Shown piece by piece: positions 1,468-31,356 of a DNA stretch of 64,000 nt. The position numbers and the translations under genes are program-made. The stretch comes from an uncultured bacterium. Its GTDB lineage: Bacteria; Omnitrophota; Omnitrophia; Omnitrophales; Aquincolibacteriaceae. The stretch is from positions 5,183-69,182 of the forward strand of contig CAZOOM010000001.1 of NCBI GenBank assembly GCA_964581425.1, written 5' to 3'. The notes under the pieces are model-generated. The model worked only from the letters and a program-made list of their open reading frames with translations, was not told where the DNA came from and made no database searches. The first letter of the stretch is position 1, and each line of letters begins with the position of its first letter.

Positions 1468-1480
1468 AAAAAATCCGATG

Positions 1481-6792: not shown

Positions 6793-6820
6793 TCATTTTT
6801 GATGAAAGAGAATTGCCGCT

Positions 6821-8434: not shown

Positions 8435-8449
8435 TTTGAGAGGGAAGCT

Positions 8450-10600: not shown

Positions 10601-10632
10601 TAAGCCAGGATTTTAAAGTAGAGAAGCGTTGA

Positions 10633-11718
10633 TTACTTTAGGATAATCTTAGCTGGAGGAAATCCGTTAAAGTTGGGGACAGCGCTTGCGCAGGAATAAG
10701 CCCCGATATTTTTCACGTAGACCACATCATTCATATAAAGTTCAGGAATTTCAGCGTCTGTAGCCAGAGTATCAAAAGAATCACACGTGGGTCCTGCCAG
10801 ACAACTTAAAAATTTCTGCCCTCGTCTTAGGGTTTTAAATTCGTATTTGCAGTGATCGAAAACCAGCCCTGAAAAATCCTGATAAACTCCGTCATTGATG
10901 TAGTAATAGTTTTTGTTATTACGGAAGGTACGGCCGACGACCTGAGTGACTAAGAGTCCTGCTGGTCCGGAGAAAAAACGTCCGGGTTCTGCAATAAAAT
11001 GGACTTTTTTGTCAAATTTGAGATGGCGGATATGTTTGCGAATCTCTGCAGCCATACGCTCAAAATTGATTCCGATTTCTCCGTCAAAATGGGGGATAGG
11101 GAATCCTCCGCCGATATCTACAATGCGTAGCAAAATCCCATTTTCCTTTGCCTCTTTAAAAATTCCAGATGTGATTTCAAGGGCCTGAAGATAAATCTCA
11201 ACATTTTTAGATTGAGAACCCACATGAAAACTAACGCCCACAGGGTGCAGACCAAGTTGCTTGGCTTTCTTCAGCATCAGAAAGGCGACTTCAGGGTCGG
11301 CACCAAATTTAAGGGAAAGATTGACCTGGCTTTTATCATTTTCAACTTTAAGACGGACAATGACATGAGCCCCGGGATAATGTTCCGCGATTTTATAAAG
11401 CTCGGGCTCGTTATCAAAAGTCATGAGTTTCACGCGCATGCGCTTTGCGGCCACAATGTCATCCACAGATTTGATGGTATTGGCAAAAATGATTTGATTC
11501 GGCTTGGCGCCGAGACGAAGCACTTGCCGCATTTCCCCAGCGCTTGCCACATCAAAACATGAGCCTAGTTTTAAAAAGGTCTGGATAATTTTAGGGTGAG
11601 GGTTTGATTTGATGGCGTAATAAGGAGTAACGTTTGGAAGCGCTTTTTGAAAGCGGCGAAACTGTTTTTCTAAAATCCCTTTACGAATGACCATAAAAGG
11701 GGTCTTGTGTTTTTTCAT
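10633..11718 (-). CDS. PLP-dependent group IV decarboxylase of the ornithine/arginine/lysine decarboxylase family. It is most likely an ornithine decarboxylase supplying putrescine.
   Basis: PLP-Lys motif YYAIKSNPHPKI. Gly-rich motif RIVDIGGGFP. Also FHVGSQ. The track ORF extends to 11862 and would overlap the hss stop at 11762 by 100 nt. Starts at 11718 (MKKHKTPFMV) or 11808 are more plausible. Confidence 0.8.
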   Translation of the reverse strand: MKKHKTPFMVIRKGILEKQFRRFQKALPNVTPYYAIKSNPHPKIIQTFLKLGSCFDVASAGEMRQVLRLGAKPNQIIFANTIKSVDDIVAAKRMRVKLMTFDNEPELYKIAEHYPGAHVIVRLKVENDKSQVNLSLKFGADPEVAFLMLKKAKQLGLHPVGVSFHVGSQSKNVEIYLQALEITSGIFKEAKENGILLRIVDIGGGFPIPHFDGEIGINFERMAAEIRKHIRHLKFDKKVHFIAEPGRFFSGPAGLLVTQVVGRTFRNNKNYYYINDGVYQDFSGLVFDHCKYEFKTLRRGQKFLSCLAGPTCDSFDTLATDAEIPELYMNDVVYVKNIGAYSCASAVPNFNGFPPAKIILK

Positions 11719-11761
11719 TAAAGTCCGGATGAGATTCTCTATTCCGGAGGGGTCAGCAGAC

Positions 11762-13273: not shown

Positions 13274-13591
13274 GATCGCTAAAGGGCCTTTCGATAAAAA
13301 AAATTAAAATGATTTTTTTGCAAACAGGAAAATTCTATCACAATTCTTTACAAGGTCAACGAAGAAGCGCGATTTTTAGCCATATTTTTGCATTTGATAA
13401 ATCATCAAACCGAAAAAAATCAAAAAATGTGACCAATGTTAGTTTTTCTTTCGATTTTATGCCGCGAATTCAAAAAATCGATTTTTGAAACAACGAAATT
13501 TTTTTTAAAACTAAATTTCGAATGAGATGATGAAAAAATACAAAAGATGAAACGAGCTCATTTGGAAATGAAGAACAAACGAAAAGGCCAG

Positions 13592-14338
13592 TTAGCTTTT
13601 TGGGAGATTGACGCCGATAAAATTGCGAGCTTTTTTGATTTGCTCAGAAGTCAGCGTGTGTTGGAGGCCGGGAACAAGATCTAATTCTACAGGGATGCCA
13701 ATTTTTTTGCAGGTTTCTACAAATTCATTCGCTTTTTCTGAGCGCCCAGTATCATCTGTTCCAATCGAGATAAAAAAGGAAATCGGCATATAGATTTGTG
13801 GCTCATCGTAGTATTCAGCCCCGATGGCTGCTACTGAGCGCACCAGGCCGGGACGCCATAAAGCAAAACGAATGGCAAATTGTGCACCGGAGGAATAACC
13901 AACCAGGGAAAGTCTGTCAGTTTTAATGGCATGTTTTTTTGATATTTGATTCAGAATTTCAAGCAAAGCAGTTCCTGACCAGCTGGAAGGAAATTGGTAG
14001 CTTGTTTGATTGTCCCAATCCTTTTCATTATGCTCAAAACGTAGACTTAATACTGTTACATTATTTTTCGCAGCAAAAAGTAGCCAGTCTGGAGACACGC
14101 GGTCTTGTCCTGATGAAGTCAGTGCATTAACGACAATGACTACGGATTGCGGGGACGCTGAAAAAGAAGGAAGTCTGAAGTACTGGTATTTAACCGTCTC
14201 ACTTTTACCGTCATGCTCAACTTGAATTTTACCCTTGCTAACACCTAAAAATTGAATTGCGGTAATAAGGGCAAAAATAATAATGAGAAAAAGTAAAAAA
14301 AATTCTAAGGAGAGATTTTTATAAGCTCGAGTATTCAT
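13592..14338 (-). CDS. Membrane-anchored or secreted alpha/beta-hydrolase (esterase/lipase-like).
   Basis: N-terminal hydrophobic anchor FFLLFLIIIFALITAIQFL. Nucleophile elbow GYSSG (GxSxG). A His and Asp are positioned downstream. Confidence 0.6.
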   Translation of the reverse strand: MNTRAYKNLSLEFFLLFLIIIFALITAIQFLGVSKGKIQVEHDGKSETVKYQYFRLPSFSASPQSVVIVVNALTSSGQDRVSPDWLLFAAKNNVTVLSLRFEHNEKDWDNQTSYQFPSSWSGTALLEILNQISKKHAIKTDRLSLVGYSSGAQFAIRFALWRPGLVRSVAAIGAEYYDEPQIYMPISFFISIGTDDTGRSEKANEFVETCKKIGIPVELDLVPGLQHTLTSEQIKKARNFIGVNLPKS

Positions 14339-14373
14339 AGGAAAGTGTCTAGCATTCTAAGGGAGTTTAAACA

Positions 14374-14432
14374 AAAAGGCGAGGTCCGTTTGCATCCCGA
14401 TATTGGTTTGCTAGGGTTTCCTCGCCTTTTGG
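14374..14432 (-). terminator. Candidate intrinsic terminator downstream of gpmA.
   Basis: On the minus strand, AAAAGGCGAGG...CCTCGCC is followed by TTTTTGTTT. The loop is long, so the structure is uncertain. There is also a separate 8-bp palindrome GAGCTCGA/TCGAGCTC at about 14442-14463. Confidence 0.35.
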
Positions 14433-14547
14433 GTATGAGCTCGAATTGTCTCGAGCTCTAACTTTTTCAAGAGAAAGAACATAACTTCGTCTAATAAAAA
14501 AATAACCCAAGATCGAAAAGTTGTCAAGATGCATTCTGGAGATAATC

Positions 14548-15297
14548 TCAACCCTTTGATTTACCTTGGCTTGCAACTGCATTCATAGCGGCTTCAACTT
14601 TGCTTTGATCTCCCAAATAATAGTGACGAATGGGTTTAAGGCGCTCATCGAGTTCGTAAACTAAGGGAATTCCCGTGGGAATATTGAGATTGACGATATC
14701 GATTTCAGAAATATTGTCTAAATATTTGACGAGTGCTCTTAAGCTGTTGCCATGAGCGGCAATCACGACGCGTTTGCCCGAACGAATCGCTGGAACTATA
14801 GCTTGATTCCAACAAGACATGACGCGCGCGACAGTATCTTTCAAACATTCGGTTAATGGAATTTCTGTTTTTGATAAGGTCTGGTATCGTGGATCTTTAG
14901 CCGGATTTCTGGGATCGGAAATCTCGAGAGCAGGAGGCGGGATATCGTAGCTTCTCCGCCAGATTTTTACTTGGCCTTCCCCAAATTTGGTAGCCATTTC
15001 CGATTTATTAAGTCCTTGGAGAGATCCGTAGTGCCTTTCATTGAGGCGCCAGTCTTTGATCACCGGAATCCACAAAAGATCCATGGGATCTAGAGCAAGC
15101 CAAAGCGTGCGAATGGCGCGCTTCAAAAGCGATGTAAAGGCAATATCAAAAACATAACCATCTTTTTTTAGAAGTTGTCCAGCTTCTGTGGCTTCAGCAA
15201 TGCCTTTTTCAGAAAGATCCACATCGGTCCATCCCGTGAATCGATTTTCTTTGTTCCATTGACTTTCACCGTGACGCAGCAAAACAAGCTTGAACAT
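14548..15297 (-). CDS. gpmA: 2,3-bisphosphoglycerate-dependent phosphoglycerate mutase.
   Basis: [32 protein letters not shown] gives the catalytic His in RHGxxxWN. The gene is 249 aa. Confidence 0.9.
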
Positions 15298-15394
15298 AAA
15301 TCCTCCAACTCATGATGGTATAAAAACAATTACGAGTGCGATAGTTTACACGTGAAGCTGCAAGACGAAAATAGAAAAATGATGGGATGCTGTT

Positions 15395-16675
15395 TTAGGT
15401 CCGATGTAGCTCAGCTAGCAAATCATCTTCGGTTGGTAGTGACTTGGCAGCATCTGGAGCTTCCATTTTGGAAGTGGAAACTGGCTCAGGGGAAGGCGGC
15501 GGATCTTTAGGAAGGAGGGTGAAGTTTTTGGCTTCAAGAAAGCCTTTGGAATAGCCTCCGATTCTTTCTTGTAAAAAGACAAAATTAATTTCCCGGATAT
15601 CTGCCTTTTTTGAAAAATTCAAAGGAAAATCAAAAACTGCCCAATCTTTTTCAATGCGCTTTACTGAAAAGGCTCTCAAAACACCACTGGCTGATTTTAG
15701 CTCAATTCTGAAATTTTCAGGAAAACCGCGTTCATGTGGATTGCGTCTGGCCATGAATCGCAGAGTCTTAAATTGCGACATATCCAGGTCACGCGTTTTC
15801 ATATAAAGGCCTGAGAAGGAACCTACAGGGAATACGTCGTACTCCATTTCCAAATAAACTTCACCGCTTAAGGGGTCTAACTTGAATTCTCGATTGGCAT
15901 AGCCGATTTTGGGAGTGTAAAAAGTCCCGTGATCAAAAACATAATCAAACAGATTTCCAGCTTTTTTTGATAAATCCAGCTGAGCTGCTTCCGAAGCTGC
16001 AGATTTAGGAATCAGTTCGTAGGCTTCACTAATTTGACGCCAGTCGCTCTGGGAAATTTTTTCAGCAAAGGGTTTTGATGGAGACGACTGAATGACCACC
16101 TTTTCCATGGATCGGATAGTGCCGTAAAATTTGCCGCGAAGATCCGTTAAGCTGGCAGTTCCTTTTAACATCCCCAGAAAGCCTTCATTCATCCCTGTTT
16201 GAGTGGCTGCAAGCGTCATATTGTTTCGACTCACGGTTTTAACAGAGCCCACAATAATCTCCAGGGGATGAGGGGAAATAGAGTCTTCGGAGGCTGCAAA
16301 GAGCGTACCCTTGCGCAGTTCTGTGCGAAAAGCAGGTTCTGCATTTTTTGCTTTTTGAGCTTTTGGGAAATAAAGCTCAGATTCAGGTTTTAAACGCATA
16401 CGGCTGACATCAGGAATTTGGAAATCAACCTCGCCGTCTTTCCCTGTTTTTAAGATATCGCCTGGGTTAAAAGCATAACCTCGTGTGCCTTTGATCCAAA
16501 TGTTTTGCGAAGCAGAAAAAATTTGGGCGTCTCCAAAAACATTTTCAAGCAAATAACCCGGAAGAGATTCTGACGAGGTGTTCGAGTTTTGATTCAGATA
16601 AAAGACAGCGGCTAAAATTCCGAAAGAAATGATAAGCGCTGGAATGGAAATCGGAGATTTTGACTTGAGTTTCAT
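15395..16675 (-). CDS. Secreted or membrane-anchored protein with an N-terminal FecR-like domain and a C-terminal domain I do not recognise.
   Basis: Signal anchor MKLKSKSPISIPALIISFGILAAVFYL. The stretch IWIKGTRGYAFNPGDILKTGKDGEVDFQIPDVSRMRLKPESELYF fits the FecR/PF04773 pattern. The C-terminal tail is proline-rich. Confidence 0.5.
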   Translation of the reverse strand: MKLKSKSPISIPALIISFGILAAVFYLNQNSNTSSESLPGYLLENVFGDAQIFSASQNIWIKGTRGYAFNPGDILKTGKDGEVDFQIPDVSRMRLKPESELYFPKAQKAKNAEPAFRTELRKGTLFAASEDSISPHPLEIIVGSVKTVSRNNMTLAATQTGMNEGFLGMLKGTASLTDLRGKFYGTIRSMEKVVIQSSPSKPFAEKISQSDWRQISEAYELIPKSAASEAAQLDLSKKAGNLFDYVFDHGTFYTPKIGYANREFKLDPLSGEVYLEMEYDVFPVGSFSGLYMKTRDLDMSQFKTLRFMARRNPHERGFPENFRIELKSASGVLRAFSVKRIEKDWAVFDFPLNFSKKADIREINFVFLQERIGGYSKGFLEAKNFTLLPKDPPPSPEPVSTSKMEAPDAAKSLPTEDDLLAELHRT

Positions 16676-16842
16676 GCGCAGATTTTATCACAGCTTGAAA
16701 ATCATGCCCAATAGAAACCTGCTGGACATAAGGGTGATGGATTTTGACAACTTTTGATAAGATTTGCTCAATATTCGAGCGTTTTAATCGATAATCATAA
16801 CCAGCGGCTGGGTTTCCAGTAGTACAGCATAGGAGTCGTTTT

Positions 16843-17463
16843 ATGGATTTTGTGATTTTGTCGTTTGCTTCGATTTTGGTGATTGTTGATCCTGTGAGTT
16901 TGATACCGACCTTTCTTGCGATGACTCCCCGAAACACCGTTCCTGAGAGAATCCGGCTCGCTGGTTTGGCTTCGCTATTTACATTCATGATCTTGCTCAT
17001 AACAGCGATTGCTGGAGAAAGAATTTTCAAGATTTTCGGAATTACGCTTTCCGCTTTTGAAATTGCCGGAGGAGTTATTCTTTTGTTGATTGCACTCGAT
17101 ATGCTTCGAGGACATCAAACAGAGGTGCGGGCGAGTCAGGAGGAACAAGAGGAGGGAACGGAAAAAGATAATATCGCAGTCACCCCGCTTGCTATGCCGA
17201 TGCTGGCGGGCCCTGGAGCTATGACCACCGTCATTCTTCTTGCAAGCCGTGCCGAAACGTGGACGAATAAGGCTATTTTAGTAGGAAATATATTTATAAT
17301 TTCGATGCTGACTTTCGGGATTCTTTACTTTGCTGCGATTCGCTCATCACATATCAGTGTCATCGCACTTAAAATCACAAGCCGATTCATGGGGCTTATT
17401 TTATCTTCGATCGCAATTCAATTTATTTTAAATGGGATTCGAACAGCACGCCTCTTCGCTTGA
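16843..17463 (+). CDS. MarC-family (UPF0056) integral membrane protein.
   Basis: MDFVILSFASILVIVDPVSLIPTFLAMT and the six-TM layout are typical of MarC/SnatA. Confidence 0.8.
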   Translation: MDFVILSFASILVIVDPVSLIPTFLAMTPRNTVPERIRLAGLASLFTFMILLITAIAGERIFKIFGITLSAFEIAGGVILLLIALDMLRGHQTEVRASQEEQEEGTEKDNIAVTPLAMPMLAGPGAMTTVILLASRAETWTNKAILVGNIFIISMLTFGILYFAAIRSSHISVIALKITSRFMGLILSSIAIQFILNGIRTARLFA

Positions 17464-17482
17464 TTCTGCTAAGATGCTTAGT

Positions 17483-17932
17483 TCAAATGTAGTACATCGA
17501 GGAATGATTTTTGCTGGATTTTTCCAAAAGATCAGCAAGGCTCGTTAGATTAAGAATTTTGGTCACAGAATCTCCAATTTCCTTCATGATCATGCGCACC
17601 GCGCAGCTTTGAAGATCTCGGCAGTCATCGCATCGCACTTGCTTCTTGGGATGCAAACAGGGAAGTGTATCCACCATGGATTCCTGAAACGGAATGATTT
17701 CGCCAAGGAGGATGTCTTGAGGCCTTCTGGCGAGAAGATAGCCTCCTCCTTTACCTTTTTTACTGGCAAGAAGGCCCTTGTTCTTGAGCTCAAGCAAAAT
17801 CAATTCCAGGAATTTTTTTGGAATCTGATTATTCTTGGCCAGATCAGAAATCAAGATAGGCTGTGAAGAACGAGATTTTTCAGCCAAATACAGCATGGCC
17901 TCAAGAGCGTACTTTACTTTTTTAGACAGCAT
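17483..17932 (-). CDS. Rrf2-family transcriptional regulator (IscR/NsrR-like) with a putative Fe-S-ligating Cys cluster.
   Basis: wHTH core MLSKKVKYALEAMLYLAEKS...ISDLAKNNQIPKKFLELILLELKNKGLL...GGGYLLARRP. Cys residues at CLHPKKQVRCDDCRDLQSC. The start is re-chosen at the internal Met to avoid overlap with Dps. Confidence 0.8.
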   Translation of the reverse strand: MLSKKVKYALEAMLYLAEKSRSSQPILISDLAKNNQIPKKFLELILLELKNKGLLASKKGKGGGYLLARRPQDILLGEIIPFQESMVDTLPCLHPKKQVRCDDCRDLQSCAVRMIMKEIGDSVTKILNLTSLADLLEKSSKNHSSMYYI

Positions 17933-17946
17933 TGCCGGCCTTTGAT

Positions 17947-18423
17947 TTAGACTTCGAGATGGGCGCGAAGCATCCACGCCATTTTTTCATGCTGTTCCAT
18001 GAGTCCGGTTAAGAAATCACTCGTGCCCATGTCATGGTGTTTTTCTCCGGTCACGGCAAGGTCTTGACGCAGTTGACGCACAAGAGTTTCATGATCTTCA
18101 AGGAGGTCATCAATCATCGCAGTTGCTTTTGGAGAGCTTCCCACTGACTCACTCAAACGTGTGGCTTTCAAATATTCCGAAAGTGATCCAGCAGCTTTGC
18201 CTCCTAAAGCAACGACTCGCTCGGCCACTTCATCAATGATTTTCTCAAGCTCGTCATATTGAGCTTCGAAAAATTTATGAAGCTCGCTAAAGTTCGGACC
18301 TTTCACGTTCCAATGATAGTTGCGGGTTTTTACATAAAGCAGGGTTTCATCTGCAAGGAGCGCATTTAATAGGACGGTGATGGTTTTGAGATCTTTTTCA
18401 TTAATTCCTAGATTGTGTTTCAT
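17947..18423 (-). CDS. dps: Dps-family DNA-binding ferritin-like protein.
   Basis: NALLADETLLYVKTRNYHWNVKGPNFSELHKFFEAQYDELEKIIDEVAERVVALGG shows the Dps ferroxidase-site His and Asp/Glu pattern. It is about 159 aa from the Met at 18423. There is a good RBS, GAAAGGAA, upstream. The track ORF extends further, to 18618. Confidence 0.85.
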   Translation of the reverse strand: MKHNLGINEKDLKTITVLLNALLADETLLYVKTRNYHWNVKGPNFSELHKFFEAQYDELEKIIDEVAERVVALGGKAAGSLSEYLKATRLSESVGSSPKATAMIDDLLEDHETLVRQLRQDLAVTGEKHHDMGTSDFLTGLMEQHEKMAWMLRAHLEV

Positions 18424-18633
18424 AAGATTCCTTTCTTCAATGTGGAGTAAGGTTAGTATTGTATGTCTTTTTTTAAGAATGCCAAGTCCTGAGAATTCTG
18501 CGAAAAGGGGGTGTGACAGGATCTGATATTTTCGATTATAATGATTCAAAGACGAAAAAAACAGCTTCAAGTTTTGTGGCTCTAAAGTGTAATTCATTTT
18601 ATCCCCATAAGATAGCATGATTGAGGTGAAAGC

Positions 18634-19812
18634 TTGACCGAACTATTAAAAAATACGGATGCGCCATCTTCTTCTAAACCCCAGATGATTTGGGTCAATA
18701 TCATCTTTTTTCTAACGATCACCCTAGTGGCGCTGATTGGGACACCAATTTATTTATGGAAATACTCTTGGCCGCCTGCGATGACTGTATGGCTAACTTT
18801 GTTTTATTTGGTAGCCACGGGCATGAGTATTACGGCTGGGTATCACCGGTTATTTGCTCACGTGACTTACAAGGCGCATCCAATTCTTGAGTTTTTCTAT
18901 TTATTTTTCGGAGCTGCTGCTTTTGAGCAATCGGTTCTCGAGTGGTCAGCCCAGCACCGGGATCATCATCTTTATGTGGATACGGACCAGGATCCTTACA
19001 GCATCAAAAAAGGTTTTTTTTATGCTCACATGGGCTGGATCCTTTTTTGGAAGCATGAAGTTCCGTTTGGCCATGCCAAAGATCTTCAGAAAAATCCCAT
19101 GGTCATGCATCAGTACAAGCATTATCACTTTTGGTGTATTGGAAGCGGAATCATTCTTCCAACCTTGCTCGGTGCTCTTTATGGAGATGCGTTAGGCGCT
19201 TTTATTTTTGTGGTTTGTCTTCGCCTTGTGATTGTTCATCACGCAACTTTTTGCATCAATTCAGTCTGTCACATGTTTGGCCGCGCAACTTATGATCCCG
19301 AAGCTACGGCAAGAGATCATTGGCTGGTGGCGTTAATTACCAACGGGGAAGGGTACCATAATTTTCATCATCGTTTTGCTGCCGATTATCGCAACGGCGT
19401 TCGTTGGTATCACTGGGATCCTTCCAAATGGCTGATTTTATTTTTGAGTTTTTTGGGCCTCACAAAGGACTTAAAAACAACCTCGCAATTTCGAATTATA
19501 GAAGCCAAGCTCAAAGCGGATGCATGGCGTGTTCGCAATTGGTTAGACAAACAGCCGGAACCCTTGCGTTTTAAAAAATTGGCTGCGGAGCTGGAAACGC
19601 ATTTTACGATGCTATGCCAGCATCTTTCGGATTGGGAAGCCAGTGCGCGTACTCATCGAAGAATTGTTGCGGATGAAGCCCAGAAAAAATCAGCTGAAAT
19701 TTGCGTGCAAGCGAAAGCTCAGTTGAAAGAGGCGAGTGATCGGTTTTACAGCACCTTAAATCAATGGAAATCGATGATGGGTTCGCAGCCTGGTCTTGCC
19801 TCAGTGATCTAG
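18634..19812 (+). CDS. Membrane fatty-acid desaturase of the acyl-CoA/acyl-lipid delta-9 (DesC/SCD) family.
   Basis: Three His boxes: HRLFAH, HRDHHLY and HNFHHRF. It is N-terminally hydrophobic. TTG start with GAGGTGA RBS. Confidence 0.85.
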   Translation: MTELLKNTDAPSSSKPQMIWVNIIFFLTITLVALIGTPIYLWKYSWPPAMTVWLTLFYLVATGMSITAGYHRLFAHVTYKAHPILEFFYLFFGAAAFEQSVLEWSAQHRDHHLYVDTDQDPYSIKKGFFYAHMGWILFWKHEVPFGHAKDLQKNPMVMHQYKHYHFWCIGSGIILPTLLGALYGDALGAFIFVVCLRLVIVHHATFCINSVCHMFGRATYDPEATARDHWLVALITNGEGYHNFHHRFAADYRNGVRWYHWDPSKWLILFLSFLGLTKDLKTTSQFRIIEAKLKADAWRVRNWLDKQPEPLRFKKLAAELETHFTMLCQHLSDWEASARTHRRIVADEAQKKSAEICVQAKAQLKEASDRFYSTLNQWKSMMGSQPGLASVI

Positions 19813-19844
19813 CGTTCCACGGATGATCAAATCTTAGGATGTCA

Positions 19845-19877
19845 TAAAAAAGGCCCCTTATCTAGGGGCCTTTTTTT
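19845..19877. terminator. Bidirectional rho-independent terminator between convergent genes.
   Basis: AAAAAA then AGGCCCCT, a TATCT loop, AGGGGCCT, then TTTTTTT. The stem is 8 bp with an A-tract on one side and a T-tract on the other. It serves the desaturase (+) and the giant ORF (-). Confidence 0.65.
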
Positions 19878-19899: not shown

Positions 19900-22800
19900 T
19901 TACTCATGTGCTCCAACCAGCTTTCTGGAAGGGGTTGATGGCTTCTCTGTTTTGACAGATGCAGCTTCAGGAACTTTCTTAAGCGGACTTTTTGAAATAT
20001 CACGTTTCACTTTTGTGATCTTTAAATTTCCGCGAGGTTTATCCAAGTCACTCGGAAGGACGAGCTGATTTCGGATTAACGTTGCGCCTGCAACCCCTTC
20101 AAAAGCCTGTCGCAGCATCCAGCCAGCGGCGCCGGTGTAACCATTCCAAATCATGCGGCCAAGTTCAAATGTAGTAAGAAAGTCAGCCGGCTGTTTGTTC
20201 GGTTGTCCGCCGTAAATTTCAATTTCCTGAGGTGTGACGTGAGCAATCGGAGAAACTTTTTGCCAGAGCCGATAAGCGGTTGCTCGGTACTCTTCAGCTT
20301 TTGCGTGATCCTTGCGCGCTTCAAATTCTTCAGCGAGTAATCTTGCGGCACGCACGAGCCACTGAACACCGTGACAGTACATTCCATTTTCACGGACACC
20401 TTCAGGATATTTGCTGCTCCGTCCGAGATAGGGTTTGCTGTCTTCGCGAAGCGCGGGCCATCCGAGAAGGATACAACTGCCGCGTTCGAGAACTTGAAGT
20501 GCGGTATTGAACACCGTAACCGCGCGTTCGAAATTCATGCCGGCCATGACAGCCCATGCCGCGGTCAAGGCATCGATTTCCCAAATGCCGCTGTCTTTGA
20601 CACCGATTTCCGTACCATCATCATGAAAGGCACGAAGATAGCGGTCGCCACGCCAAGTGGTTTCCAGACACTCTTTAAGTGCTTCCAGTTTTTGAACATA
20701 AAATGCTTTTTTCTGTGCGCCTTCTTTACGTTCAATAATAGGAACCATTTCTTTTAGGATGTAATAGAGGAAAAATCCGAGCCACACACTTTCACCGTGA
20801 CCTTCGCCTCCGATTTCATCGAGTCCGTCATTCCAGTCTCCGGTCCCCATTAACGGAAGACCGTGTTTGCCGGTGCGTTTTTTGATCACAAGATCAATCG
20901 AACGCATGCAATGTTTGTAAAGCGTATCACCGCGCGTGGTCCGATGATAAAGATGCCCCCAGCCGCCTTTATTTTTCGGAAGCTGAGCAAACGGAAACTC
21001 CGACATGACGTAAGATGCCATCTCATCCAGAATCGTGTCATCACCCGTCATGCGAATATATTCCACAGCAGCCCAAGCGAGCCAGAGCGGATTATCCGAA
21101 GCGTGTGAGCGGCAAGAAAATGCCGTGCGTCCGTCCACGAGCGTGAAGAACCAGTGAAACACATCGCCTTCTAAGAACTGCTGAGAGGCATGCAGAAGGA
21201 TTTGCTTCCGTGCCAATGCTGGATCCATCCAAATCAGATTGATCGTGTCCTGCAACTGATCGCGGAAACCGTAAGCGCCGCTGGTTTGATAAAAACCTTT
21301 GCGTGCCCAGATGCGTTCGGCGAGTGCCTGATATTTGAGCCAGTTTTGATAGCGGTCAAACTCAGGTTGATTGGTTTCCACTTTGGCGGATTCCATAAGC
21401 GCGAGCCACCACTGGCGCGTGCTCTCAAGACTCTTTTTCGCATTTTCCAGATTTTTATATTTTTGAACAATGCGGGCAGCATCTTTTTCAGAATCCGTTT
21501 GACCAAGTACCACAGCCAATGTGAATTCCTGATGCGACGGAATTTCAACCGAACCAAGGAAAGCAGCAATTTGTCCGGGATCCTTCGATTCTTTTTCATC
21601 CGGATGTCCCATTTCAACTAAGTAAGGGTGCGAGGGTCCGCGTCCGTCTCCAAAAAATCGTCCGCGTTTAGTTTCGACGAGTTCCGGATTCACAGACATT
21701 GAGGCAAAGGCCCAGCCATTTCTAAAAATATTTCTCGGGTTTGAGAAATAAAGTGCGTTCAAAGCCTTGTCATGTTTCGTGACAAGCGGGCCTGAACGTT
21801 CCGGCTGAAAGGAAAGAACCATCTGAAAATAAGGAGCCACACGAAGCCTGCGTGTTTGGTTTCCTGTATTTTTGATGCGCAAAAGGTAAATGCCAGTAGG
21901 TTCATCAGTAGGAACAAAAACCGTAAGCTCTGTGGACAAGGTTCCTTTAGACATGCGGAACACTGCTGTCCCGTCCACGCTGAAATCACAATCATGTTTG
22001 GCACTCACATCATTAATGGGGTGATACGTGGGAGAAAACCATTCCTTCTGATCTTGGTCATAAAGATAAATGGCCTCAGTAGGAATTTCTTTCGTGACCG
22101 TATCCGGCCAATCTGGCGTGAGACGATTTTGCTGTGAGTTTCCGTTACACGAAGTGTGAAGTCCGCGATTCGTGACCATGACTGAATGCGTGGGGTTTGA
22201 CATCCCGTGGTCAAAAGGCCGAGGAGTAAACGGAGTCAGCACGCGCATGGTATTGCCTTTATCCAGAAACTCAAAATAAGGTTGCGGAGTTTTGGGATAA
22301 ACTTCTCCGTGTCCGATTAAGAGGCTGCGTTTTTTGCCAGCCGCTGGCACGGATTTAGGAGCCAGAGGTTTTAAGAATTTTTGGATCAAATCAAGGGCAA
22401 TGCCTTTGTTTTTGGAGTAACCTATGACGAGTTTCATGCTCACAGATGCTTGAGCGCCTACCGGGGCATTGACCATCAAGCTTCCAATAGGGTCAAAGGT
22501 TGGGCAAGCGGGCGTGTCCTTTGCAGGCAGAAAATCCAAAGTCTCAAGCGCTCGAGGAGTCCAGACACTTTTCCCACGTCCGATGAAATCAACTCGGCCT
22601 GTGAGGAATCCTTCCGGAGCGAGATCCGAGGCCATGAATCCCATGGACTTCGTGCTCTTTTGCCAAGAAATAATGGCATTCGCTCCGCTCACATATTCCA
22701 TTTCAGGATAAAGACGAGCGTACTGAGTATGGAATCGGTCGTGCATCCAACCGTTTAAAACCCACTCAAGATACGAAACGACTTTGAGCTGCCGCGGTTT

Positions 22801-25800
22801 TTCTGTCAAATTCTCTACCGTGATATTCCAAAGCTCAACAGGGCTGTCCTGATCAGGCAGTCGGATTTCGATCGTGGATTTGACACCGTTGTGAGTTTGG
22901 GTGAGCTTTAAACTGTCTTCAACTTTTTCAACGCTCGCATTAGGAAAATATTCACGAGGACAGTTTCCCATTATAGGCCAGGATACAATTTTCCCTTTGG
23001 CCGCATCAGTCGTGTCGACGATGAAGAGAATGCGTCCCGTGGGATCCATAAAATCGTAGGATCGGCGGCTGATGTCGCACTCTTTTCCTGTGAGTTCACT
23101 GTAAACTTCTGCATTGGCTTTTGCGGTCACTTTATACTCCCGATTTGAGAGTTCGAAGGACGCAAGGGCCTTTTTGGCTGCGCGCTCGCGTGAAGCACGA
23201 ATCAAAAATGCGAAAAAGGAGCAAACCAAAATCGCTCCTGCCATTAGGAAAAACATTTGTCCTGCAGAGAGCGATTGAAGAAAAGCGAGCAGCCCTTTTC
23301 CTCGGTTTGCATTTTGCATGGCTTCCGAAGCACTCCAAACATATTCCCATTCAGCGCCGCGCGGGATGTAAAAAGGAATCAGAAGAGGCGCCCAAGTGGT
23401 AAAGCGTTTGACCCCTTCAGGGATGTAGCGCTGAGCCGCGGCAGGTCCAATAAATCGTGACAGTTTTTCGTCCAATCGATCCATGCCGATGAAGCTCAAA
23501 TTCACAAGCGTGGCCACGCGAAGTCCCATGTGGTCCATCCAAATCAGGATGCGGAGAAAATCAAAAGCCATCATCCAAAGGAAAACCTGAAGACTCCAGT
23601 TGTGGAAATCTGTCGGAGAAGAGGTTGTGTTATGCCAGATGGCAAACAGGGTGCGGATGGCTCCGTCCTGGTTGTACCAAGTCGGCTCGGGCATGACGCG
23701 TAAAAAGGTGGCAATAATCGGTGACATCCAAAGTCCCCAACGAAGGACGTAAATCAAGTTTTCGATTAACGAAGCAAATCCCGCTTTGGAAAAGAAAAAT
23801 TTGATTGGAGTCGTATCTTTTTCAAAAATGGATTGAAGAAAAACTTTGTTGATGGCAAAGAGCCAGGCTGCGATCGACCAGTTGATGACTCCGGCAAGAG
23901 ATTCGAGGAAAATCAATTTGACTCCGCCTGAGTAATGACCCAGATCAATGCGTCCCCATTTGTTTAAGAGGGGAATGGTGTTGTAGGCGATCGGATCAAA
24001 TCCTGAGCTTGTGTAGAGCTTGAATTTTTCTACAATCACAGGCACTTGAGCGGCATCAAGGTAAAACGCGACTGCACTTCCTACGAAAATCCCAAAAATG
24101 GAATCAGTGAAATAAAGTTTCCAAGTTTGAATTTTCCCTTGATGGCGAAGGCCGTAAAAAATATCCCGAAGAAGACTGACGCCTCCGGAGGCCAGAAGTC
24201 CCATCATCAAACCGAAAACAATTCGGTCCGGCATGGCTTTGGTGAACATTCCTTGAGAAAACATCACGGCAAATCCGTAGCCTGCGATCGCTCCGCGCAA
24301 ATACAACCAGCCATTTTGATAGCTGTAAGCTGTGCGTTCAAAAAAAGGAAGGCTGCCGTCAAAGGTTTCGATAATGGTTTTCAGGAATGGGAAAATCAAA
24401 GCACCGGCCAAAATCCCAATAAAGATGGGCGAGCTTGTCATGGCGCTGTGGACAAACGATAATTTGAGTGTGATTTGAAGCGCGTAAAGAATGGCCATCA
24501 AAATCGAGCTATAGGCAAATCCTTTGCGGGCACCGGTATCGATATTTTTGAAAATATTTTCTGGAGTTGGGGCCGCATTTTTTCCAGCGTCCAAGAAAAT
24601 ACCAGTTAAAAGATAAACTTCCCCCCAAAGACCTGCGAAAGAAAGACCGGTCGCGATGACTGCGATCACAGCTTGCAACAGAATCGGCAGGGAAGCCACG
24701 CCAGCTGATGATGCGAGTCCAGCAATCATCGGAGCTGCGGTGGCACCCAGAGAAACCCCAAGCAAAATCCAGTGGGCTTTTGCGGTTTTGAGGATTCTTC
24801 CTTTGGTCAGCATTCCAAAACTGTTCGTAACGATCTCATTAAAAAGAAAAAGTACAAGAGCGCGGCCCAGAAACTCCGCCATGGCAGGCCATGCCTTGGT
24901 AAGAGTCAGAGTAAGGCCCAATCCGAGTTTTTGAAGCAGGATGGGGTTTTCGAGCAAGAGCAGCCATCCAAAAAGGAATGGGGTCAGGACAATCATAAAA
25001 GCAGGTGTCTTTTTGAGATGTTTTCCGGAAGAGCACATGCTATTAGCATTAAAAATTTGATAAATCAAAAAGGCGATGCACGCGGTCAGCTTGTTGATTT
25101 GGAAAAGCTCGCTCCATCCTGCAGGCGCTTGTAAAAGATCAAGCCGGCTTGAAGCTACTGCCAGCATTCCGGTGAGAAAAATATTTTGGAACACTTCACC
25201 GCGACTGAGATGTTTTCCCGTCAAACGGATTTTTAGAAGTTCAGCAATTAATCCTCCTGCTAAAGCGACCGCAAGAAAGGTCCAACTGAAACCAACATCT
25301 AAAATACCAGAAGTGCCGAGTGAGTAAATCCGAATCGCAAGTGCGAGAATAAAAATCGTCATGGTTCCGGTAAAAAAATCTCTGCCCGAAAAGCCTTTGG
25401 GAGATTCTTTGGGCTTTTCCGGGGTCGCGGATTTGCTGGATTTAAGAACTAAGCCAGCGAACCACGAGAAAATAAGAGCGGTCAGGAGCACAAGTCCTAA
25501 TTTAAGAAATGTGGCATGACGCTCCACAAAAGTAGTTTGATTAAAATCAAAATCAAAGAAAAAAGAACCCATTACAGGCTTGATCTCTTCGGGCTTAGCA
25601 TTCATGGGCGGAACAATCATGGGGCTTACAACAAAAACAAATTCACGAAGTTCGCCAATCTTATTCCATCGGATAAATTCGCGCAGAGAATTCCACCCTG
25701 TTTTGAGCTGCAAAATGGGAATGATTTGGGTATCCAGGCTTCCCTTGACTTCAATTTTAACGGCTGCTTGGCGGGCATTTTGGTTTTCAGGAATTTTGAC

Positions 25801-27219
25801 ACCGACTCTGACAGCATCTGCGTTTGCTGGCTTGAGTCCTTCCGGAAATGTTTTGGACCACACACCTACCACGGTTCCCTGAGGAAGATTGTAGTCAAAT
25901 TTCCAAACATCTTTTTCGAGCGTTTCATCGTAAGCCACGGCAACATTGCCTGAAGAATTACCGATATTAAAAACGCCTTTTTCTCCAGCATCAAAAAGGG
26001 TATAGGCCGGAAGCGGTCCAGAGTTTTTCACTTCAGTGGATTTGCGTTTTACAAATTCGAGTGAAAAATCAAGAGTTCCTTTGGCTTCACTACCGGTGGT
26101 TTCAGGATTTAAAATTAAACTCACTTCTTTCAAGGCTGCAATCGAAGACCAATCAATGGATTGCTGAATCGAGTTCCATCCGGATTTAAGCTGGAGGGGG
26201 ATGGTTTGAGTTCCCTGGCTGCCTTTGATTTCAAGCTGAGTGGAAATGGATTTTGCCTGAGCGTCGTCCAAAAGACGAATTCCAAGCTTCACCGTATTGA
26301 TGACTTCACCGGTTAATGTTTCAGGATAGTCTTTGGTCCAAAGTTTGACAGATCCCTTTTGAGGAAGGACATAATCAAGTTCAATGACGTCTTTTCCCAT
26401 GGCTTCATCAAAAGTAGAAGTCACAGTGCCCTTGGAAGCTTCTCCAGCATCAGCGCCATTTTCTTTGGCATCAAGATGCGAGTAGGAAGTTTTCACTTGA
26501 GCAGGTTGCGCGGCAGGCATTTCAATGTTCGGAGTTTCAATCTTGGGGGCAATTTTTTCTACAACTTCGGTTGCCTCTTTGGTAGCCGCAGGAATGACAT
26601 CGGCAACTTTGGCTTTTACGGTTTTGACGATTGGTGCGCGAAAAGAAAGATCCGAGGTGAAATCTAAAGTCCCTTTGACAGTTTCTGTGGCGCTTTTCGG
26701 ACTGATGATAAAAACAATTTGATCCAAATTTCCAATCGTTGACCAATCAATCGAAGCCTGGGCATTGGACCATCCTGATCTCACAGAAACCGGTACCGAC
26801 TGTGTATTGACAGTACCTCGGATTTCCATAGCAATCGAGATTTGAGCCGCTTGGCTTGCTTCAAGGGTTTTGATTCCAGCTTTGAGAAGGTTTACACTTT
26901 CAGGTGTGACTGCAGCGGGAAAGTTTTTTGTCCAAACGACCAAAGATGAGTTCGGGGCCAATGTGTAATCCAGTTCGAGCACATCTTTGCGCGCAGACTC
27001 ATCATAAGTTGAAGTTAGAGTCCCCTTGGCCTCTCCCTTGATCACAACGCCATTTTCTTTGGCATCGAGAAGGGAATAGGTGGCGGTTTCAGCTGCTTGC
27101 AACATTCCAAGATGTGGAATGGCAAAGAGTCCGGCAGTCAAGATAACGGCTGCCAGCATGAGCGCGGAAAAGCGCTGATGAGATGCGATCGCTTGTTTAA
27201 GACGGGTCCATGACTTCAT
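19900..27219 (-). CDS. Giant multidomain membrane protein of about 2440 aa. It has a signal/TM, three tandem ~150-aa extracytoplasmic repeats, a polytopic membrane domain of about 850 aa, and a GH94 glycoside phosphorylase module made of two N-terminal beta-sandwich-like regions plus an (alpha/alpha)6 catalytic domain. It resembles a cyclic-beta-1,2-glucan-synthase C-terminal region.
   Basis: GH94 hallmarks are present: GAYGFRDQLQD and the catalytic GDWND (about 20826-20840 on the minus strand), plus YCHGVQWL. The three repeats each carry ...LDAKENG...KGT.TST.DE...KDV.ELDY.L......WTK..P........K.GI.......A.......EI.G...TQ..P...KSGWN.....IDWS.I. The membrane region (about 22950-25500) has at least 16 predicted helices. 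The likely start is ATG 27219 with an AAGGAA RBS. The track ORF begins at 27270. The C-terminus is a Lys/Pro-rich tail. Confidence 0.85.
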   Translation of the reverse strand: MKSWTRLKQAIASHQRFSALMLAAVILTAGLFAIPHLGMLQAAETATYSLLDAKENGVVIKGEAKGTLTSTYDESARKDVLELDYTLAPNSSLVVWTKNFPAAVTPESVNLLKAGIKTLEASQAAQISIAMEIRGTVNTQSVPVSVRSGWSNAQASIDWSTIGNLDQIVFIISPKSATETVKGTLDFTSDLSFRAPIVKTVKAKVADVIPAATKEATEVVEKIAPKIETPNIEMPAAQPAQVKTSYSHLDAKENGADAGEASKGTVTSTFDEAMGKDVIELDYVLPQKGSVKLWTKDYPETLTGEVINTVKLGIRLLDDAQAKSISTQLEIKGSQGTQTIPLQLKSGWNSIQQSIDWSSIAALKEVSLILNPETTGSEAKGTLDFSLEFVKRKSTEVKNSGPLPAYTLFDAGEKGVFNIGNSSGNVAVAYDETLEKDVWKFDYNLPQGTVVGVWSKTFPEGLKPANADAVRVGVKIPENQNARQAAVKIEVKGSLDTQIIPILQLKTGWNSLREFIRWNKIGELREFVFVVSPMIVPPMNAKPEEIKPVMGSFFFDFDFNQTTFVERHATFLKLGLVLLTALIFSWFAGLVLKSSKSATPEKPKESPKGFSGRDFFTGTMTIFILALAIRIYSLGTSGILDVGFSWTFLAVALAGGLIAELLKIRLTGKHLSRGEVFQNIFLTGMLAVASSRLDLLQAPAGWSELFQINKLTACIAFLIYQIFNANSMCSSGKHLKKTPAFMIVLTPFLFGWLLLLENPILLQKLGLGLTLTLTKAWPAMAEFLGRALVLFLFNEIVTNSFGMLTKGRILKTAKAHWILLGVSLGATAAPMIAGLASSAGVASLPILLQAVIAVIATGLSFAGLWGEVYLLTGIFLDAGKNAAPTPENIFKNIDTGARKGFAYSSILMAILYALQITLKLSFVHSAMTSSPIFIGILAGALIFPFLKTIIETFDGSLPFFERTAYSYQNGWLYLRGAIAGYGFAVMFSQGMFTKAMPDRIVFGLMMGLLASGGVSLLRDIFYGLRHQGKIQTWKLYFTDSIFGIFVGSAVAFYLDAAQVPVIVEKFKLYTSSGFDPIAYNTIPLLNKWGRIDLGHYSGGVKLIFLESLAGVINWSIAAWLFAINKVFLQSIFEKDTTPIKFFFSKAGFASLIENLIYVLRWGLWMSPIIATFLRVMPEPTWYNQDGAIRTLFAIWHNTTSSPTDFHNWSLQVFLWMMAFDFLRILIWMDHMGLRVATLVNLSFIGMDRLDEKLSRFIGPAAAQRYIPEGVKRFTTWAPLLIPFYIPRGAEWEYVWSASEAMQNANRGKGLLAFLQSLSAGQMFFLMAGAILVCSFFAFLIRASRERAAKKALASFELSNREYKVTAKANAEVYSELTGKECDISRRSYDFMDPTGRILFIVDTTDAAKGKIVSWPIMGNCPREYFPNASVEKVEDSLKLTQTHNGVKSTIEIRLPDQDSPVELWNITVENLTEKPRQLKVVSYLEWVLNGWMHDRFHTQYARLYPEMEYVSGANAIISWQKSTKSMGFMASDLAPEGFLTGRVDFIGRGKSVWTPRALETLDFLPAKDTPACPTFDPIGSLMVNAPVGAQASVSMKLVIGYSKNKGIALDLIQKFLKPLAPKSVPAAGKKRSLLIGHGEVYPKTPQPYFEFLDKGNTMRVLTPFTPRPFDHGMSNPTHSVMVTNRGLHTSCNGNSQQNRLTPDWPDTVTKEIPTEAIYLYDQDQKEWFSPTYHPINDVSAKHDCDFSVDGTAVFRMSKGTLSTELTVFVPTDEPTGIYLLRIKNTGNQTRRLRVAPYFQMVLSFQPERSGPLVTKHDKALNALYFSNPRNIFRNGWAFASMSVNPELVETKRGRFFGDGRGPSHPYLVEMGHPDEKESKDPGQIAAFLGSVEIPSHQEFTLAVVLGQTDSEKDAARIVQKYKNLENAKKSLESTRQWWLALMESAKVETNQPEFDRYQNWLKYQALAERIWARKGFYQTSGAYGFRDQLQDTINLIWMDPALARKQILLHASQQFLEGDVFHWFFTLVDGRTAFSCRSHASDNPLWLAWAAVEYIRMTGDDTILDEMASYVMSEFPFAQLPKNKGGWGHLYHRTTRGDTLYKHCMRSIDLVIKKRTGKHGLPLMGTGDWNDGLDEIGGEGHGESVWLGFFLYYILKEMVPIIERKEGAQKKAFYVQKLEALKECLETTWRGDRYLRAFHDDGTEIGVKDSGIWEIDALTAAWAVMAGMNFERAVTVFNTALQVLERGSCILLGWPALREDSKPYLGRSSKYPEGVRENGMYCHGVQWLVRAARLLAEEFEARKDHAKAEEYRATAYRLWQKVSPIAHVTPQEIEIYGGQPNKQPADFLTTFELGRMIWNGYTGAAGWMLRQAFEGVAGATLIRNQLVLPSDLDKPRGNLKITKVKRDISKSPLKKVPEAASVKTEKPSTPSRKLVGAHE
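25545..27087 (-). repeat. Three tandem ~150-aa protein-domain repeats inside the giant ORF. This is the extracytoplasmic N-terminal region. A carbohydrate-binding-module role is possible.
   Basis: Protein residues about 62-215, 262-410 and 425-575 align with each other at roughly 30-40% identity. DNA identity is low, so this is an old duplication. Confidence 0.6.
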
Positions 27220-27957: not shown

Positions 27958-28389
27958 TCATGAAAAATGCTCAACTTGAATCATGTAAGCACCATTTTCA
28001 AGTTGAGGAAGTTTTGCAGAAAAATAGCCCTCAAAATCTACCGGAGCTTCCACTTGCTGCAGATGACCTGAAAAAACAACTTTACCTGAGGGTAGTCCTT
28101 TTAAGTGAAGAAGATCTATGACTTGTCCCGAGACATGCCACTCAGCAACCTTACCTTGAGGAGAGGGAGGTTTTTTCCATTGATATCCAGGCTCACCTGT
28201 AATCGGCTCTGGAGGTTTAATTTTTTCAAGACGCTGGGGCTTTGTATTTTCAATGACTTGTATTTGATCATTTCCATCTTTATCTTCCCAGCGACCGACT
28301 TCTGTACCATTTTCTTTGACAATATAAGTGGTTGCCAAAAAAAGGGGAGAAAAAAGCAAAAGGAGCAACAAAAAACGAATGTGATCCAT
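27958..28389 (-). CDS. Small secreted hypothetical protein.
   Basis: Signal peptide MDHIRFLLLLLLFSPLFLATT. It is 143 aa and has no domain I recognise. It lies upstream of the giant GH94 gene on the same strand. Confidence 0.5.
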   Translation of the reverse strand: MDHIRFLLLLLLFSPLFLATTYIVKENGTEVGRWEDKDGNDQIQVIENTKPQRLEKIKPPEPITGEPGYQWKKPPSPQGKVAEWHVSGQVIDLLHLKGLPSGKVVFSGHLQQVEAPVDFEGYFSAKLPQLENGAYMIQVEHFS

Positions 28390-29256: not shown

Positions 29257-31356
29257 TTGATTGCCTTTACATACCTCTTTAAAATAGAGTGTCTTATGCA
29301 ACAAATGCTGACATTTGCGCGAAGACGCTCCCTTTTACTCCTTCTGTGTGTTTTTTTCGTTTGGCGGATGTGTTTTTTGCTGACTTCTCAACCCTTTCAT
29401 CTCTTTATTTTCCCTCATGAAGAGCTCTATCGCGGTGCCATTGCCAGAGACCTTGTAGAAGGGCTTCGCATGCCCTTTTTTCAATATCGTGCAGACGATT
29501 ATTCAGGGGGGTCGTTGGCAATCGGATTTCTCGTCTCTTTGTTTTTTCGAGGTTTAGGCTCAAGTCTATTAATCCTTAAACTGGTTCCTTTGTTTTTCTC
29601 CATGGGTGGGCTCGTTTTTTGGTATCTCCTGCTTAGCCGTTATCAGAGCGCTAAAACAGCCGTCTATTTTTCTTTGATCTATATTTTTGCTCCACTTGCC
29701 TTTGTACGCTATAGCGTCCTTCCCTTAGGAGATCACACAGAAACCATTTTTTTTACAGGATGCAGTCTTTTTTTGTTTCTTGAAATTGTGACAGAAAGAA
29801 ATAAATCCTGGGTTTATCCTGTTCTTTTGGGATTGGTTTCAGGACTAGCTTTATGGATTGCCTACATTTATTTCCTAACCATTCTGACTTTAGTTTTATT
29901 TGGTTGGGTTTATTATCGAAGAGCGCTTTTGTCACGTAAATTTCTTCTGGTTTGGGGTTCATTTTTTATCGGATTTTCTCCTTGGCTGATGGTGAATTTC
30001 TCAAACCACTTTTCGGGCTTTCGTATCCAAGAAGAGGATATTTGGAACTGTTTTCAGTGGTCTCATTTTGTCAGCCGTATATTTGACTTTAAAACCTTTG
30101 CTGTGACGCGATTCCTGACTTCTTTCGAGATTTATCATGTAATGGAAAAAATCCCTCAGTATAAAGTGATCCTATTTTACATCATCCTCTTTCTGGCGCC
30201 GGTTACAATGGGAAGCTTTTATTTTTTAAGAAAGAATCAGAAGGTGAGCCTGTTTCGCAAATGGCGTAAGCCGAATTTGGTTGTTTTGTCTTCAATTTAT
30301 TTTTTTATTTTTTGCTTTATCACTCAATGGACAAGTTTTATCAATCTCAGATATTACATTCCCACTCATCCGTTTATTTATTTTGTCGTGGCATATTTCG
30401 TGCGTTGGATTCAAAAAGAGCATCCGCGTGTACCCCTTCTTTTTTTTAGTGTCTTGATAAGCTCCGCTCTGTATTTTCAAGGCGCTCTTTTTTCTTGGAA
30501 AGATTTCGGATACGCGCTTCGAACGCCGGGTTATTCCTACCTGAATCTTGTGGACGTTCCAGTTTGCAGTGACGCATTGAAATGTTTGGAGGTTTACCAG
30601 AATTTTCAGAATCAACTTTCGATAGAAGAAAAAGGGGAGTTCCTCCGTATTGTTTCTGACAGAATGGCGCATCAGATCTCAGAGATGGAATGGAAACAAG
30701 AACTTATTTCTGTGGAAAATAAAATCCCTAAGTTTGCGGTTCCCTCTTTGTATCTGCGTTTAGGACATCGGTTTGGAACTGCGGAGAGTTGGAATTTAGA
30801 TAAAGGGCTTGCTGAATTTGATGATTTGAAAATTCTCAATCCTCAAAAATATGAGATCCTGTTTCGAGGATTTTTAGATGGATATTCTCAGCAAGAAATG
30901 AATGAGAAGGACTTGGCCTTCTTGGAGCTTGTTCCTTCGGGGTTGCCACCTGCTTTGATCCCTGATTATTTTCGAATGCGCGGCATTCAATGGGCTCGAC
31001 TCATCGAAAAACAATCCGGTCATTTCCGGGATTTTAGAAAACAGCTTCGAATTACTTCGCAGAATATGAATCAGAAAACGCAGCCTTTTTTTCTTCAGGG
31101 GGTTGGAGTGACCTTGTATGAGAAGTGGCTCTGGAAGCATTTGAGTCTTCGAAAGATAAAAAAACTTCCCTTAAATTTAGAGTATCCTGTGCTCCAAGGA
31201 ATGGGGATGGGAGCTGTCTTGCGTCCGACACCGCTTGGCTGGGCGCTTGCCGATGCTGTTGCAGAAGAGGTAAGAGGAGAGCGTAAAAGATTTGTCTATG
31301 AAGGAAAAAGTTTGGCCGAAAAATCTGTGGCTTTAATGCTGCAACCTATTTCATAA
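29257..31356 (+). CDS. GT-C fold membrane glycosyltransferase (ArnT/PMT, GT83/GT39-like) with a C-terminal soluble domain of about 270 aa.
   Basis: First extracytoplasmic loop carries HEELYRGAIARDLV. This matches the (D/E)E..Y..I.R..L motif of ArnT/PMT (DETRYAEISREML in ArnT). About 11 TM helices follow. The C-terminal 270 aa are hydrophilic. Confidence 0.6.
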   Translation: MIAFTYLFKIECLMQQMLTFARRRSLLLLLCVFFVWRMCFLLTSQPFHLFIFPHEELYRGAIARDLVEGLRMPFFQYRADDYSGGSLAIGFLVSLFFRGLGSSLLILKLVPLFFSMGGLVFWYLLLSRYQSAKTAVYFSLIYIFAPLAFVRYSVLPLGDHTETIFFTGCSLFLFLEIVTERNKSWVYPVLLGLVSGLALWIAYIYFLTILTLVLFGWVYYRRALLSRKFLLVWGSFFIGFSPWLMVNFSNHFSGFRIQEEDIWNCFQWSHFVSRIFDFKTFAVTRFLTSFEIYHVMEKIPQYKVILFYIILFLAPVTMGSFYFLRKNQKVSLFRKWRKPNLVVLSSIYFFIFCFITQWTSFINLRYYIPTHPFIYFVVAYFVRWIQKEHPRVPLLFFSVLISSALYFQGALFSWKDFGYALRTPGYSYLNLVDVPVCSDALKCLEVYQNFQNQLSIEEKGEFLRIVSDRMAHQISEMEWKQELISVENKIPKFAVPSLYLRLGHRFGTAESWNLDKGLAEFDDLKILNPQKYEILFRGFLDGYSQQEMNEKDLAFLELVPSGLPPALIPDYFRMRGIQWARLIEKQSGHFRDFRKQLRITSQNMNQKTQPFFLQGVGVTLYEKWLWKHLSLRKIKKLPLNLEYPVLQGMGMGAVLRPTPLGWALADAVAEEVRGERKRFVYEGKSLAEKSVALMLQPIS

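Follow-up and report, generated by a model that had tools for sequence, protein, structure and literature searches.

We analysed a 64,000-nucleotide stretch of DNA from an uncultured Omnitrophota bacterium (contig CAZOOM010000001.1, positions 5,183 to 69,182; hereafter, the window), focusing on one giant open reading frame (ORF) on its minus strand. The N-terminal 565 residues of the encoded protein carry three tandem copies (R1 to R3) of a module of about 145 aa. These are followed by a polytopic membrane domain of about 780 aa and then by a GH94 phosphorylase region (Table 1).

Table 1. Layout of the giant gene, and the operon that surrounds its relatives in a one-module clade. Positions refer to the window unless another locus is named.
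Feature	Residues	Positions	Strand	Remarks
Giant ORF	1-2439	27219..19900	minus	ATG at 27219, stop at 19900-19902; 2439 aa, starts MKSWTRL
Predicted signal peptide or signal anchor	1-43	27091..27219	minus	MKSWTRLKQAIASHQRFSALMLAAVILTAGLFAIPHLGMLQA then A
R1, distal-type module, predicted CBM11-like β-jelly-roll	48-196	26632-27078	minus	
R1-R2 linker	197-245	26485..26631	minus	IVKTVKAKVADVIPAATKEATEVVEKIAPKIETPNIEMPAAQPAQVKTS; outside the repeat profile
R2, distal-type module	246-394	26038-26484	minus	
Short R2-R3 linker	395-405	26005..26037	minus	
R3, membrane-proximal type	406-564	25528-26004	minus	
Predicted polytopic all-α membrane domain	566-1350	23170..25524	minus	Invariant motifs (see text)
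First predicted transmembrane helix	574-592	25444..25500	minus	Hydropathy and loop-charge count
GH94 phosphorylase region, predicted cytoplasmic		19903..23169	minus	PF06165 1.4e-66, PF17167 4.8e-64 (Pfam)
Operon of the one-module clade		449-19871 of locus L036		In order: two-component system (response regulator, histidine kinase); small CBM_11 protein; PF10091/GH144-like gene; TPR protein; giant transmembrane-GH94 gene; second GH144-like gene; two sugar ATP-binding cassette (ABC) permeases; 258-269-aa protein of no named family; ROK protein

A preliminary description of the locus, made from the sequence alone, had placed three tandem, diverged repeats at 25545-27087, and our mapping of the units to 25528-27078 bears this out. 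Across the alignments the copies share 34-45% of their residues. In pairwise BLASTP the protein identities are 43% for R1/R2 (E 4e-49), 35% for R1/R3 (E 2e-33) and 38% for R2/R3 (E 6e-33). Smith-Waterman scores between the repeats (242-358) compare with shuffled means near 30 (z = 42-53), which shows that the repeats are real. The shared scaffold that had been read from the letters (LDAKENG, KGT.TSTYDE, KDV.ELDY, WTK.FP, EI.G, TQ..P, KSGWN and IDWS.I) is present and largely coincides with the family consensus. Codon-aligned DNA identity among R1-R3 is only 50-55%, and identity at third codon positions 38-41%, in good agreement with the earlier view of an old duplication that has been maintained. 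R1 and R2 are separated by a 49-residue low-complexity linker rich in Pro, Ala, Lys, Glu and Val, which is probably flexible. R3 has a 10-aa insertion ahead of its last strand and, like other proximal units, keeps the G.FN.G and GvWTK motifs, both of which the distal units have lost. About 35 positions are conserved in proximal and distal units alike, many of them polar or aromatic, including W49, W103, W112, Y38, K51, E85, K87 and Q93 in R1 numbering.

R1 was modelled with AlphaFold2 from an alignment of six units; the model is confident (mean pLDDT 92.5, pTM 0.85) and all-β, with about ten strands. In Foldseek searches with this model the carbohydrate-binding module (CBM) family CBM11 ranks first (6r3m, 6r31 and 1v0a; E 8e-7 to 4e-6, TM-score about 0.6). 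CBMs dominate the top structural neighbours, the model superposing on CBM11, CBM44, CBM30, CBM4, CBM22 and CBM27. The CBM11-led matches indicate that the fold is already known: as modelled, it is the classic β-jelly-roll of type-B CBMs and not a new fold. The preliminary description was thus right to suspect a CBM-like module, but its fold is not the unfamiliar one it was taken to be.

At the level of sequence the picture is different. None of R1-R3 has a Pfam match even at E<=10, none matches PF03425, and none matches NCBIfam. When 69 diverse family units were compared with Pfam at E<=1, only scattered noise and no CBM model, PF03425 included, was found. Searches of PDB sequences with the N-terminal region and with a 69-sequence profile returned nothing relevant and no CBM, and no sequence match to CIA30/NDUFAF1 (PF08547) was seen. 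The preliminary description had treated a match to a well-known CBM family as speaking against a new module; such a match exists in fold and is absent in sequence. The units are autonomous, non-catalytic domains on linkers in a GH94-bearing protein, as the first part of the definition of a CBM has it. The best explanation, given the model, is that the module represents a strongly diverged branch, not yet catalogued, of the CBM11/CBM30/CBM44/CIA30 fold class. Since no curated sequence family covers it, it could become a new CBM family, and in this respect the suggestion that the module may be new stands.

How widely the module occurs became apparent only with profile methods. A word-indexed homologue search with the repeats gave just 2 fragments, whereas searching 1.84 billion representative proteins exhaustively with a profile revealed the family, with 155 matches, 37 of them below 1e-30. 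Two long matches were judged spurious, both being repetitive proteins. The remaining matches long enough to judge share one layout, in which a signal peptide and 1-4 modules precede a large membrane block and GH94: the module is confined to the N-terminus, behind the signal peptide, of one family of giant proteins. An exact-sequence look-up of the giant protein gave no record. Named proteins of this family are almost all annotated as hypothetical, and our literature search found neither module nor host protein family in any paper.

The repeat alignments have no conserved stretch of 7-10 columns, and relatives were scanned for through invariant motifs of the membrane block, with one genome per species. 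The motif of the membrane domain occurs in the genomes of at least 569 species, chiefly of Omnitrophota, Elusimicrobiota and Planctomycetes. We compared the best 80 of these loci, the selection resting on the membrane domain rather than on the repeats. They belong mostly to Candidatus Omnitrophota, with others from Elusimicrobiota, Planctomycetia, Auribacterota, FCPU426 and Desulfobulbales, and the closest are about 60% identical to the giant protein of the window. Among the 67 loci with a complete N-terminus, 23 have one module, 21 have two and 14 have three, with four modules in 2 (L031 and L056), five in a single metagenome-assembled genome of Elusimicrobiota (L060, 5624-13783) and none in 6. 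The module is an accessory whose expansion is lineage-specific. Note that one apparent zero, the Omnitrophota bin17 chromosome (CP070780, L038), encodes a module on a separate 246-aa ORF (7587-8324) ending where the module-less giant ORF starts, which points to a split gene, or to a frameshift or sequencing error.

Comparison of individual units across species suggests the order in which they arose. R3 shares 50-59% identity with the last or single modules of other species but, within that profile alignment, only 34-36% with its neighbours R1 and R2, while R1 and R2 are closest to the first- and second-position modules, respectively, of three-module orthologues. By this positional matching, the membrane-proximal copy is ancestral and the triplication is older than the split between these species.

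A further module-like region lies in the window itself. Some 3 kb downstream of the giant gene lies the gene of a 426-aa FecR-like protein (15395-16675, minus strand; weak Pfam FecR match over aa 74-150). The repeat-family profile aligns weakly, though over almost the full length, with the C-terminal region of this protein (about aa 267-383; local E 0.002). Orthologues of the protein beside the giant gene in L003 (15921-17189) and L035 (16285-17601) match at E 1e-5 to 1e-6. This sensor-type protein may harbour a remote, stand-alone copy of the module.

The remainder of the giant protein determines where the modules are expected to reside. Its N-terminus has the make-up of a Sec-type signal, with four K/R residues, a hydrophobic segment at 17-35 and then ...MLQA|AE, so that a signal-peptidase cleavage site is plausible. 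The first transmembrane helix starts 9 residues past R3, with a K/R-rich loop after it. Behind the last membrane helix (1322-1340) comes RASRERAAKK, which leads into the GH94 region. From the signal segment and the positive-inside rule applied to these two loops, we infer that the 520-aa repeat region is extracytoplasmic, that is, periplasmic, and that the phosphorylase is cytoplasmic. The latter comprises a supersandwich (aa 1666-1906) and a catalytic barrel (aa 1937-2378), and its catalytic-Asp motif GDWNDG is intact (aa 2127-2132, window 20824-20841). The membrane domain carries the invariant motifs FPxxKTIIETFDGS, RWGLWMSP, TWYNQDG, DHMGLRVATLVNLSF and VKRFTTWAPLLIPFYIP. Searched whole against Pfam, the giant protein yields nothing beyond the GH94 domains, and Pfam and NCBIfam together reveal no glycosyltransferase family anywhere in it. 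Residues 553-1439 (window 22900-25560), which contain the membrane block, match no PDB sequence, that of Cgs included. The G+C content of the GH94-coding part of the gene (window 20001-24000) is 48-49%, against about 42-44% in the surroundings; the two bins holding the repeat-coding part are at 43.5-45.4%.

Indications of a ligand come from relatives of the window's protein. In a clade whose giant proteins carry one module (L012, L015, L026, L036, L045, L047, L054, L073 and L038), the gene sits in a common operon (Table 1) that looks like a β-1,2-glucan locus. The small CBM_11 protein of this operon matches PF03425 at 30.9 bits, and the second, downstream GH144-like protein bears a weak CBM_11 N-terminal domain. 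In hhalign comparisons the repeat family aligns with the N-terminal domain of the downstream GH144-like proteins over 117 columns (probability 83%, E 9e-6), weakly with the small CBM_11 protein (probability 36%, E 4e-4) and not at all with the 269-aa operon protein (probability 0.2%). The repeats may thus be tied, remotely and transitively through the GH144-like N-terminal domains, to the CBM11 superfamily. Together, the operon content and the Cgs-like character of the GH94 domain point to β-1,2-glucan metabolism, and the presence of GH144-like β-1,2-glucanases, ABC permeases and a ROK protein beside the gene suggests that the bound glycan may be a substrate rather than a product. That the module is specific for the glucan product, as the preliminary description had proposed, is doubtful, the giant protein having no recognisable glycosyltransferase domain.

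We therefore tentatively favour a model, short of an even chance in our estimate, in which the periplasmic array binds a β-glucan, probably a β-1,2-glucan, for inward hand-over to the GH94 domain. R3, as the ancestral copy, would be fixed where the membrane domain faces the periplasm, beside the first membrane helix, and R1 and R2, as later diverged copies on linkers, would add reach and avidity. The array would hold a soluble β-glucan chain, likeliest β-1,2-glucan or sophoro-oligosaccharides, at the mouth of the membrane domain, which would connect the captured chain to the cytoplasmic phosphorylase. Our preferred direction is inward: substrate would be captured, passed in and phosphorolysed to glucose-1-phosphate. 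We favour substrate capture because the giant protein lacks a recognisable glycosyltransferase and because the operon partners are of degradative and uptake types. A bolder version, which we consider doubtful, is a single-chain machine of a previously unrecognised class: its membrane domain, of novel fold, would thread β-1,2-glucan between the periplasm and the fused cytoplasmic GH94 phosphorylase, for either phosphorolysis coupled to import or glycosyltransferase-independent synthesis and export, and the modules, as its periplasmic arm, would be the first CBM family specific for this glycan.

Several observations weigh against inward substrate capture. In the three-repeat clade to which the window belongs, no glucan-related neighbours are conserved: synteny extends to the closest relative, L003, only, and no GH144, ABC or ROK partners are found within the window. 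The clade that does have the operon already possesses ABC importers, and a second import route is not obviously needed there. The membrane block gives no fold match and has no recognisable channel or transporter relative, and the module has no sequence-level membership in any CBM family searched. Finally, two Desulfobulbales loci (L076 and L080, the latter from Desulfopila sp. IMCC35006) and L070 have no modules at all; modules that are missing from some family members must be dispensable for the core function.

The main rival to substrate capture is product handling coupled to export, in line with the glucan product named in the preliminary description; we consider it unlikely but to be reckoned with. 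Here GH94 would polymerise from glucose-1-phosphate, or the membrane domain would be an unrecognised synthase, and the modules would guide or retain the nascent glucan as it is exported through the membrane domain. The GH94 domain is most like that of the biosynthetic enzyme Cgs, and the large, highly conserved membrane domain has no assigned function. The gene is solitary in the window's clade, as an all-in-one machine would be. Membrane polysaccharide synthases are also known to carry periplasmic CBMs: that of EmbC (3pty), which handles arabinan, is a weak Foldseek match of the R1 model (E 9e-4), and the carbohydrate-binding domains of BcsB serve cellulose synthase at the periplasmic side. 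The missing glycosyltransferase and the degradative and uptake partners in the related operons are what incline us to substrate capture instead.

It is less probable that the jelly-rolls do not bind glucan at all and act as spacers, as oligomerisation or envelope-tethering domains (with peptidoglycan, the outer membrane or proteins as partners), or as CIA30-type chaperones for the membrane domain. CIA30 does belong to the same fold class, but CBMs predominate by far among the nearest structures, the modules are part of a carbohydrate-active enzyme, and tandem arrays of variable copy number with Pro/Ala-rich linkers are typical of CBMs. Binding is likewise favoured by the remote profile link to the CBM_11-like domains that the GH144-like enzymes of the operons carry.

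We regard as quite improbable a third alternative, a periplasmic glycan sensor, in which glucan binding to the modules would be relayed through the membrane domain to switch GH94, keeping periplasmic glucans in homeostasis, and no polymer would cross the membrane. In its favour, an ABC importer is already encoded at the operon-clade loci, no transporter-like fold is recognised in the membrane domain, and the compact transmembrane region of Cgs likewise forms no export channel (PMC10901819). However, 780 residues of motif-rich membrane protein go far beyond the needs of a signalling relay. We also know of no precedent for an allosterically gated GH94. That the likeness of the repeats is due to chance, composition or an assembly artefact can be set aside, given E-values of 1e-33 to 1e-49, z above 40, diverged third codon positions and the same three-unit architecture with position-specific orthologues in independent genomes.

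Two ORFs flank the giant gene upstream, at 29257-31356 on the plus strand (699 aa) and 27958-28389 on the minus strand (143 aa); neither matches Pfam or has a counterpart among the 80 related loci. A cluster at 2062-10600 on the plus strand starts with a 1576-aa hybrid sensor kinase (phosphonate-binding-like periplasmic domain, dCache, multiple PAS domains, HisKA/HATPase and a receiver), followed by a 537-aa protein with a weak match to Alginate_exp, an outer-membrane porin family, and by a CHASE4 hybrid histidine kinase. We found no connection between this kinase cluster and the repeats.

To our knowledge, no CBM dedicated to β-1,2-glucan has been recognised; if the modules bind this glycan, they would constitute a new CBM family for it and a useful probe. 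If they are merely spacers, what we report is routine domain annotation. In either case the modules flag a widespread protein family that has apparently never been studied, and a periplasmic N-terminal tandem array on a polytopic GH94 membrane protein is not described in the papers that we could search. One chain unites a predicted periplasmic glycan-binding array, a large membrane domain lacking any structural relative and a phosphorylase on the cytoplasmic side. For Omnitrophota, Elusimicrobiota and Planctomycetes, this architecture suggests a new way in which a polysaccharide could be moved or sensed across the inner membrane. The host protein, and chiefly its membrane domain, is more novel than the module itself.

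Among known systems, the closest in fold to the module is CBM11 of Clostridium thermocellum Lic26A-Cel5E (1v0a, 6r3m, 6r31; PF03425), which binds β-1,4 and mixed-linkage (β-1,3-1,4) glucans. The modelled β-jelly-roll superposes on CtCBM11, yet identity is only 13-15%, and neither PF03425 nor another Pfam CBM model matches any of the repeats. The settings differ as well: CBM11 sits on a secreted glycanase, whereas our module is predicted to face the periplasm at the N-terminal end of a polytopic membrane protein. In GH144-type β-1,2-glucanases, such as Parabacteroides distasonis BDI_3064 (5z06), the N-terminal β-sandwich is present in single copy and fused to a soluble hydrolase; we know of no demonstration that these domains bind a ligand.

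The carbohydrate-binding domains of BcsB and the C-terminal CBM of EmbC (3pty) offer a functional analogy, being jelly-roll glycan binders at the periplasmic face of a membrane polysaccharide machine. Both systems have a defined glycosyltransferase (GT2 and GT-C, respectively), whereas none is detectable in the giant protein. Their binding domains have no sequence relationship to our module, and BcsB is not among the top structural matches of the R1 model.

The giant protein is most readily compared with Cgs, likewise a giant inner-membrane protein with a GH94 phosphorylase in its C-terminal half. The closest PDB sequence to the C-terminus of the giant protein is the GH94 domain of Cgs (8rf0/8rf9, E 3e-106), and GDWNDG aligns to the GGDWNDG motif of Cgs that holds the catalytic D2528 (PMC11842490). 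The alignment, however, covers the GH94 part only. Cgs has six transmembrane helices and an N-terminal domain (NTD), a GT84 domain and a cyclase domain, all of its soluble domains being cytoplasmic (PMC10901819). In the giant protein we detected no NTD, no counterpart of the GT2-like GT84 domain (Pfam, NCBIfam and PDB sequences) and, between the transmembrane block and GH94, no PF10091-type match to the (α/α)6 cyclase/transglycosylase (GH189). The layout of Cgs is also unlike that of the giant protein, with its signal peptide, predicted periplasmic repeats and helical block. By its predicted domains, then, the giant protein is not a Cgs: its family combines a membrane domain of about 780 aa with 1-5 CBM-like modules on the presumed periplasmic side, and Cgs has neither.
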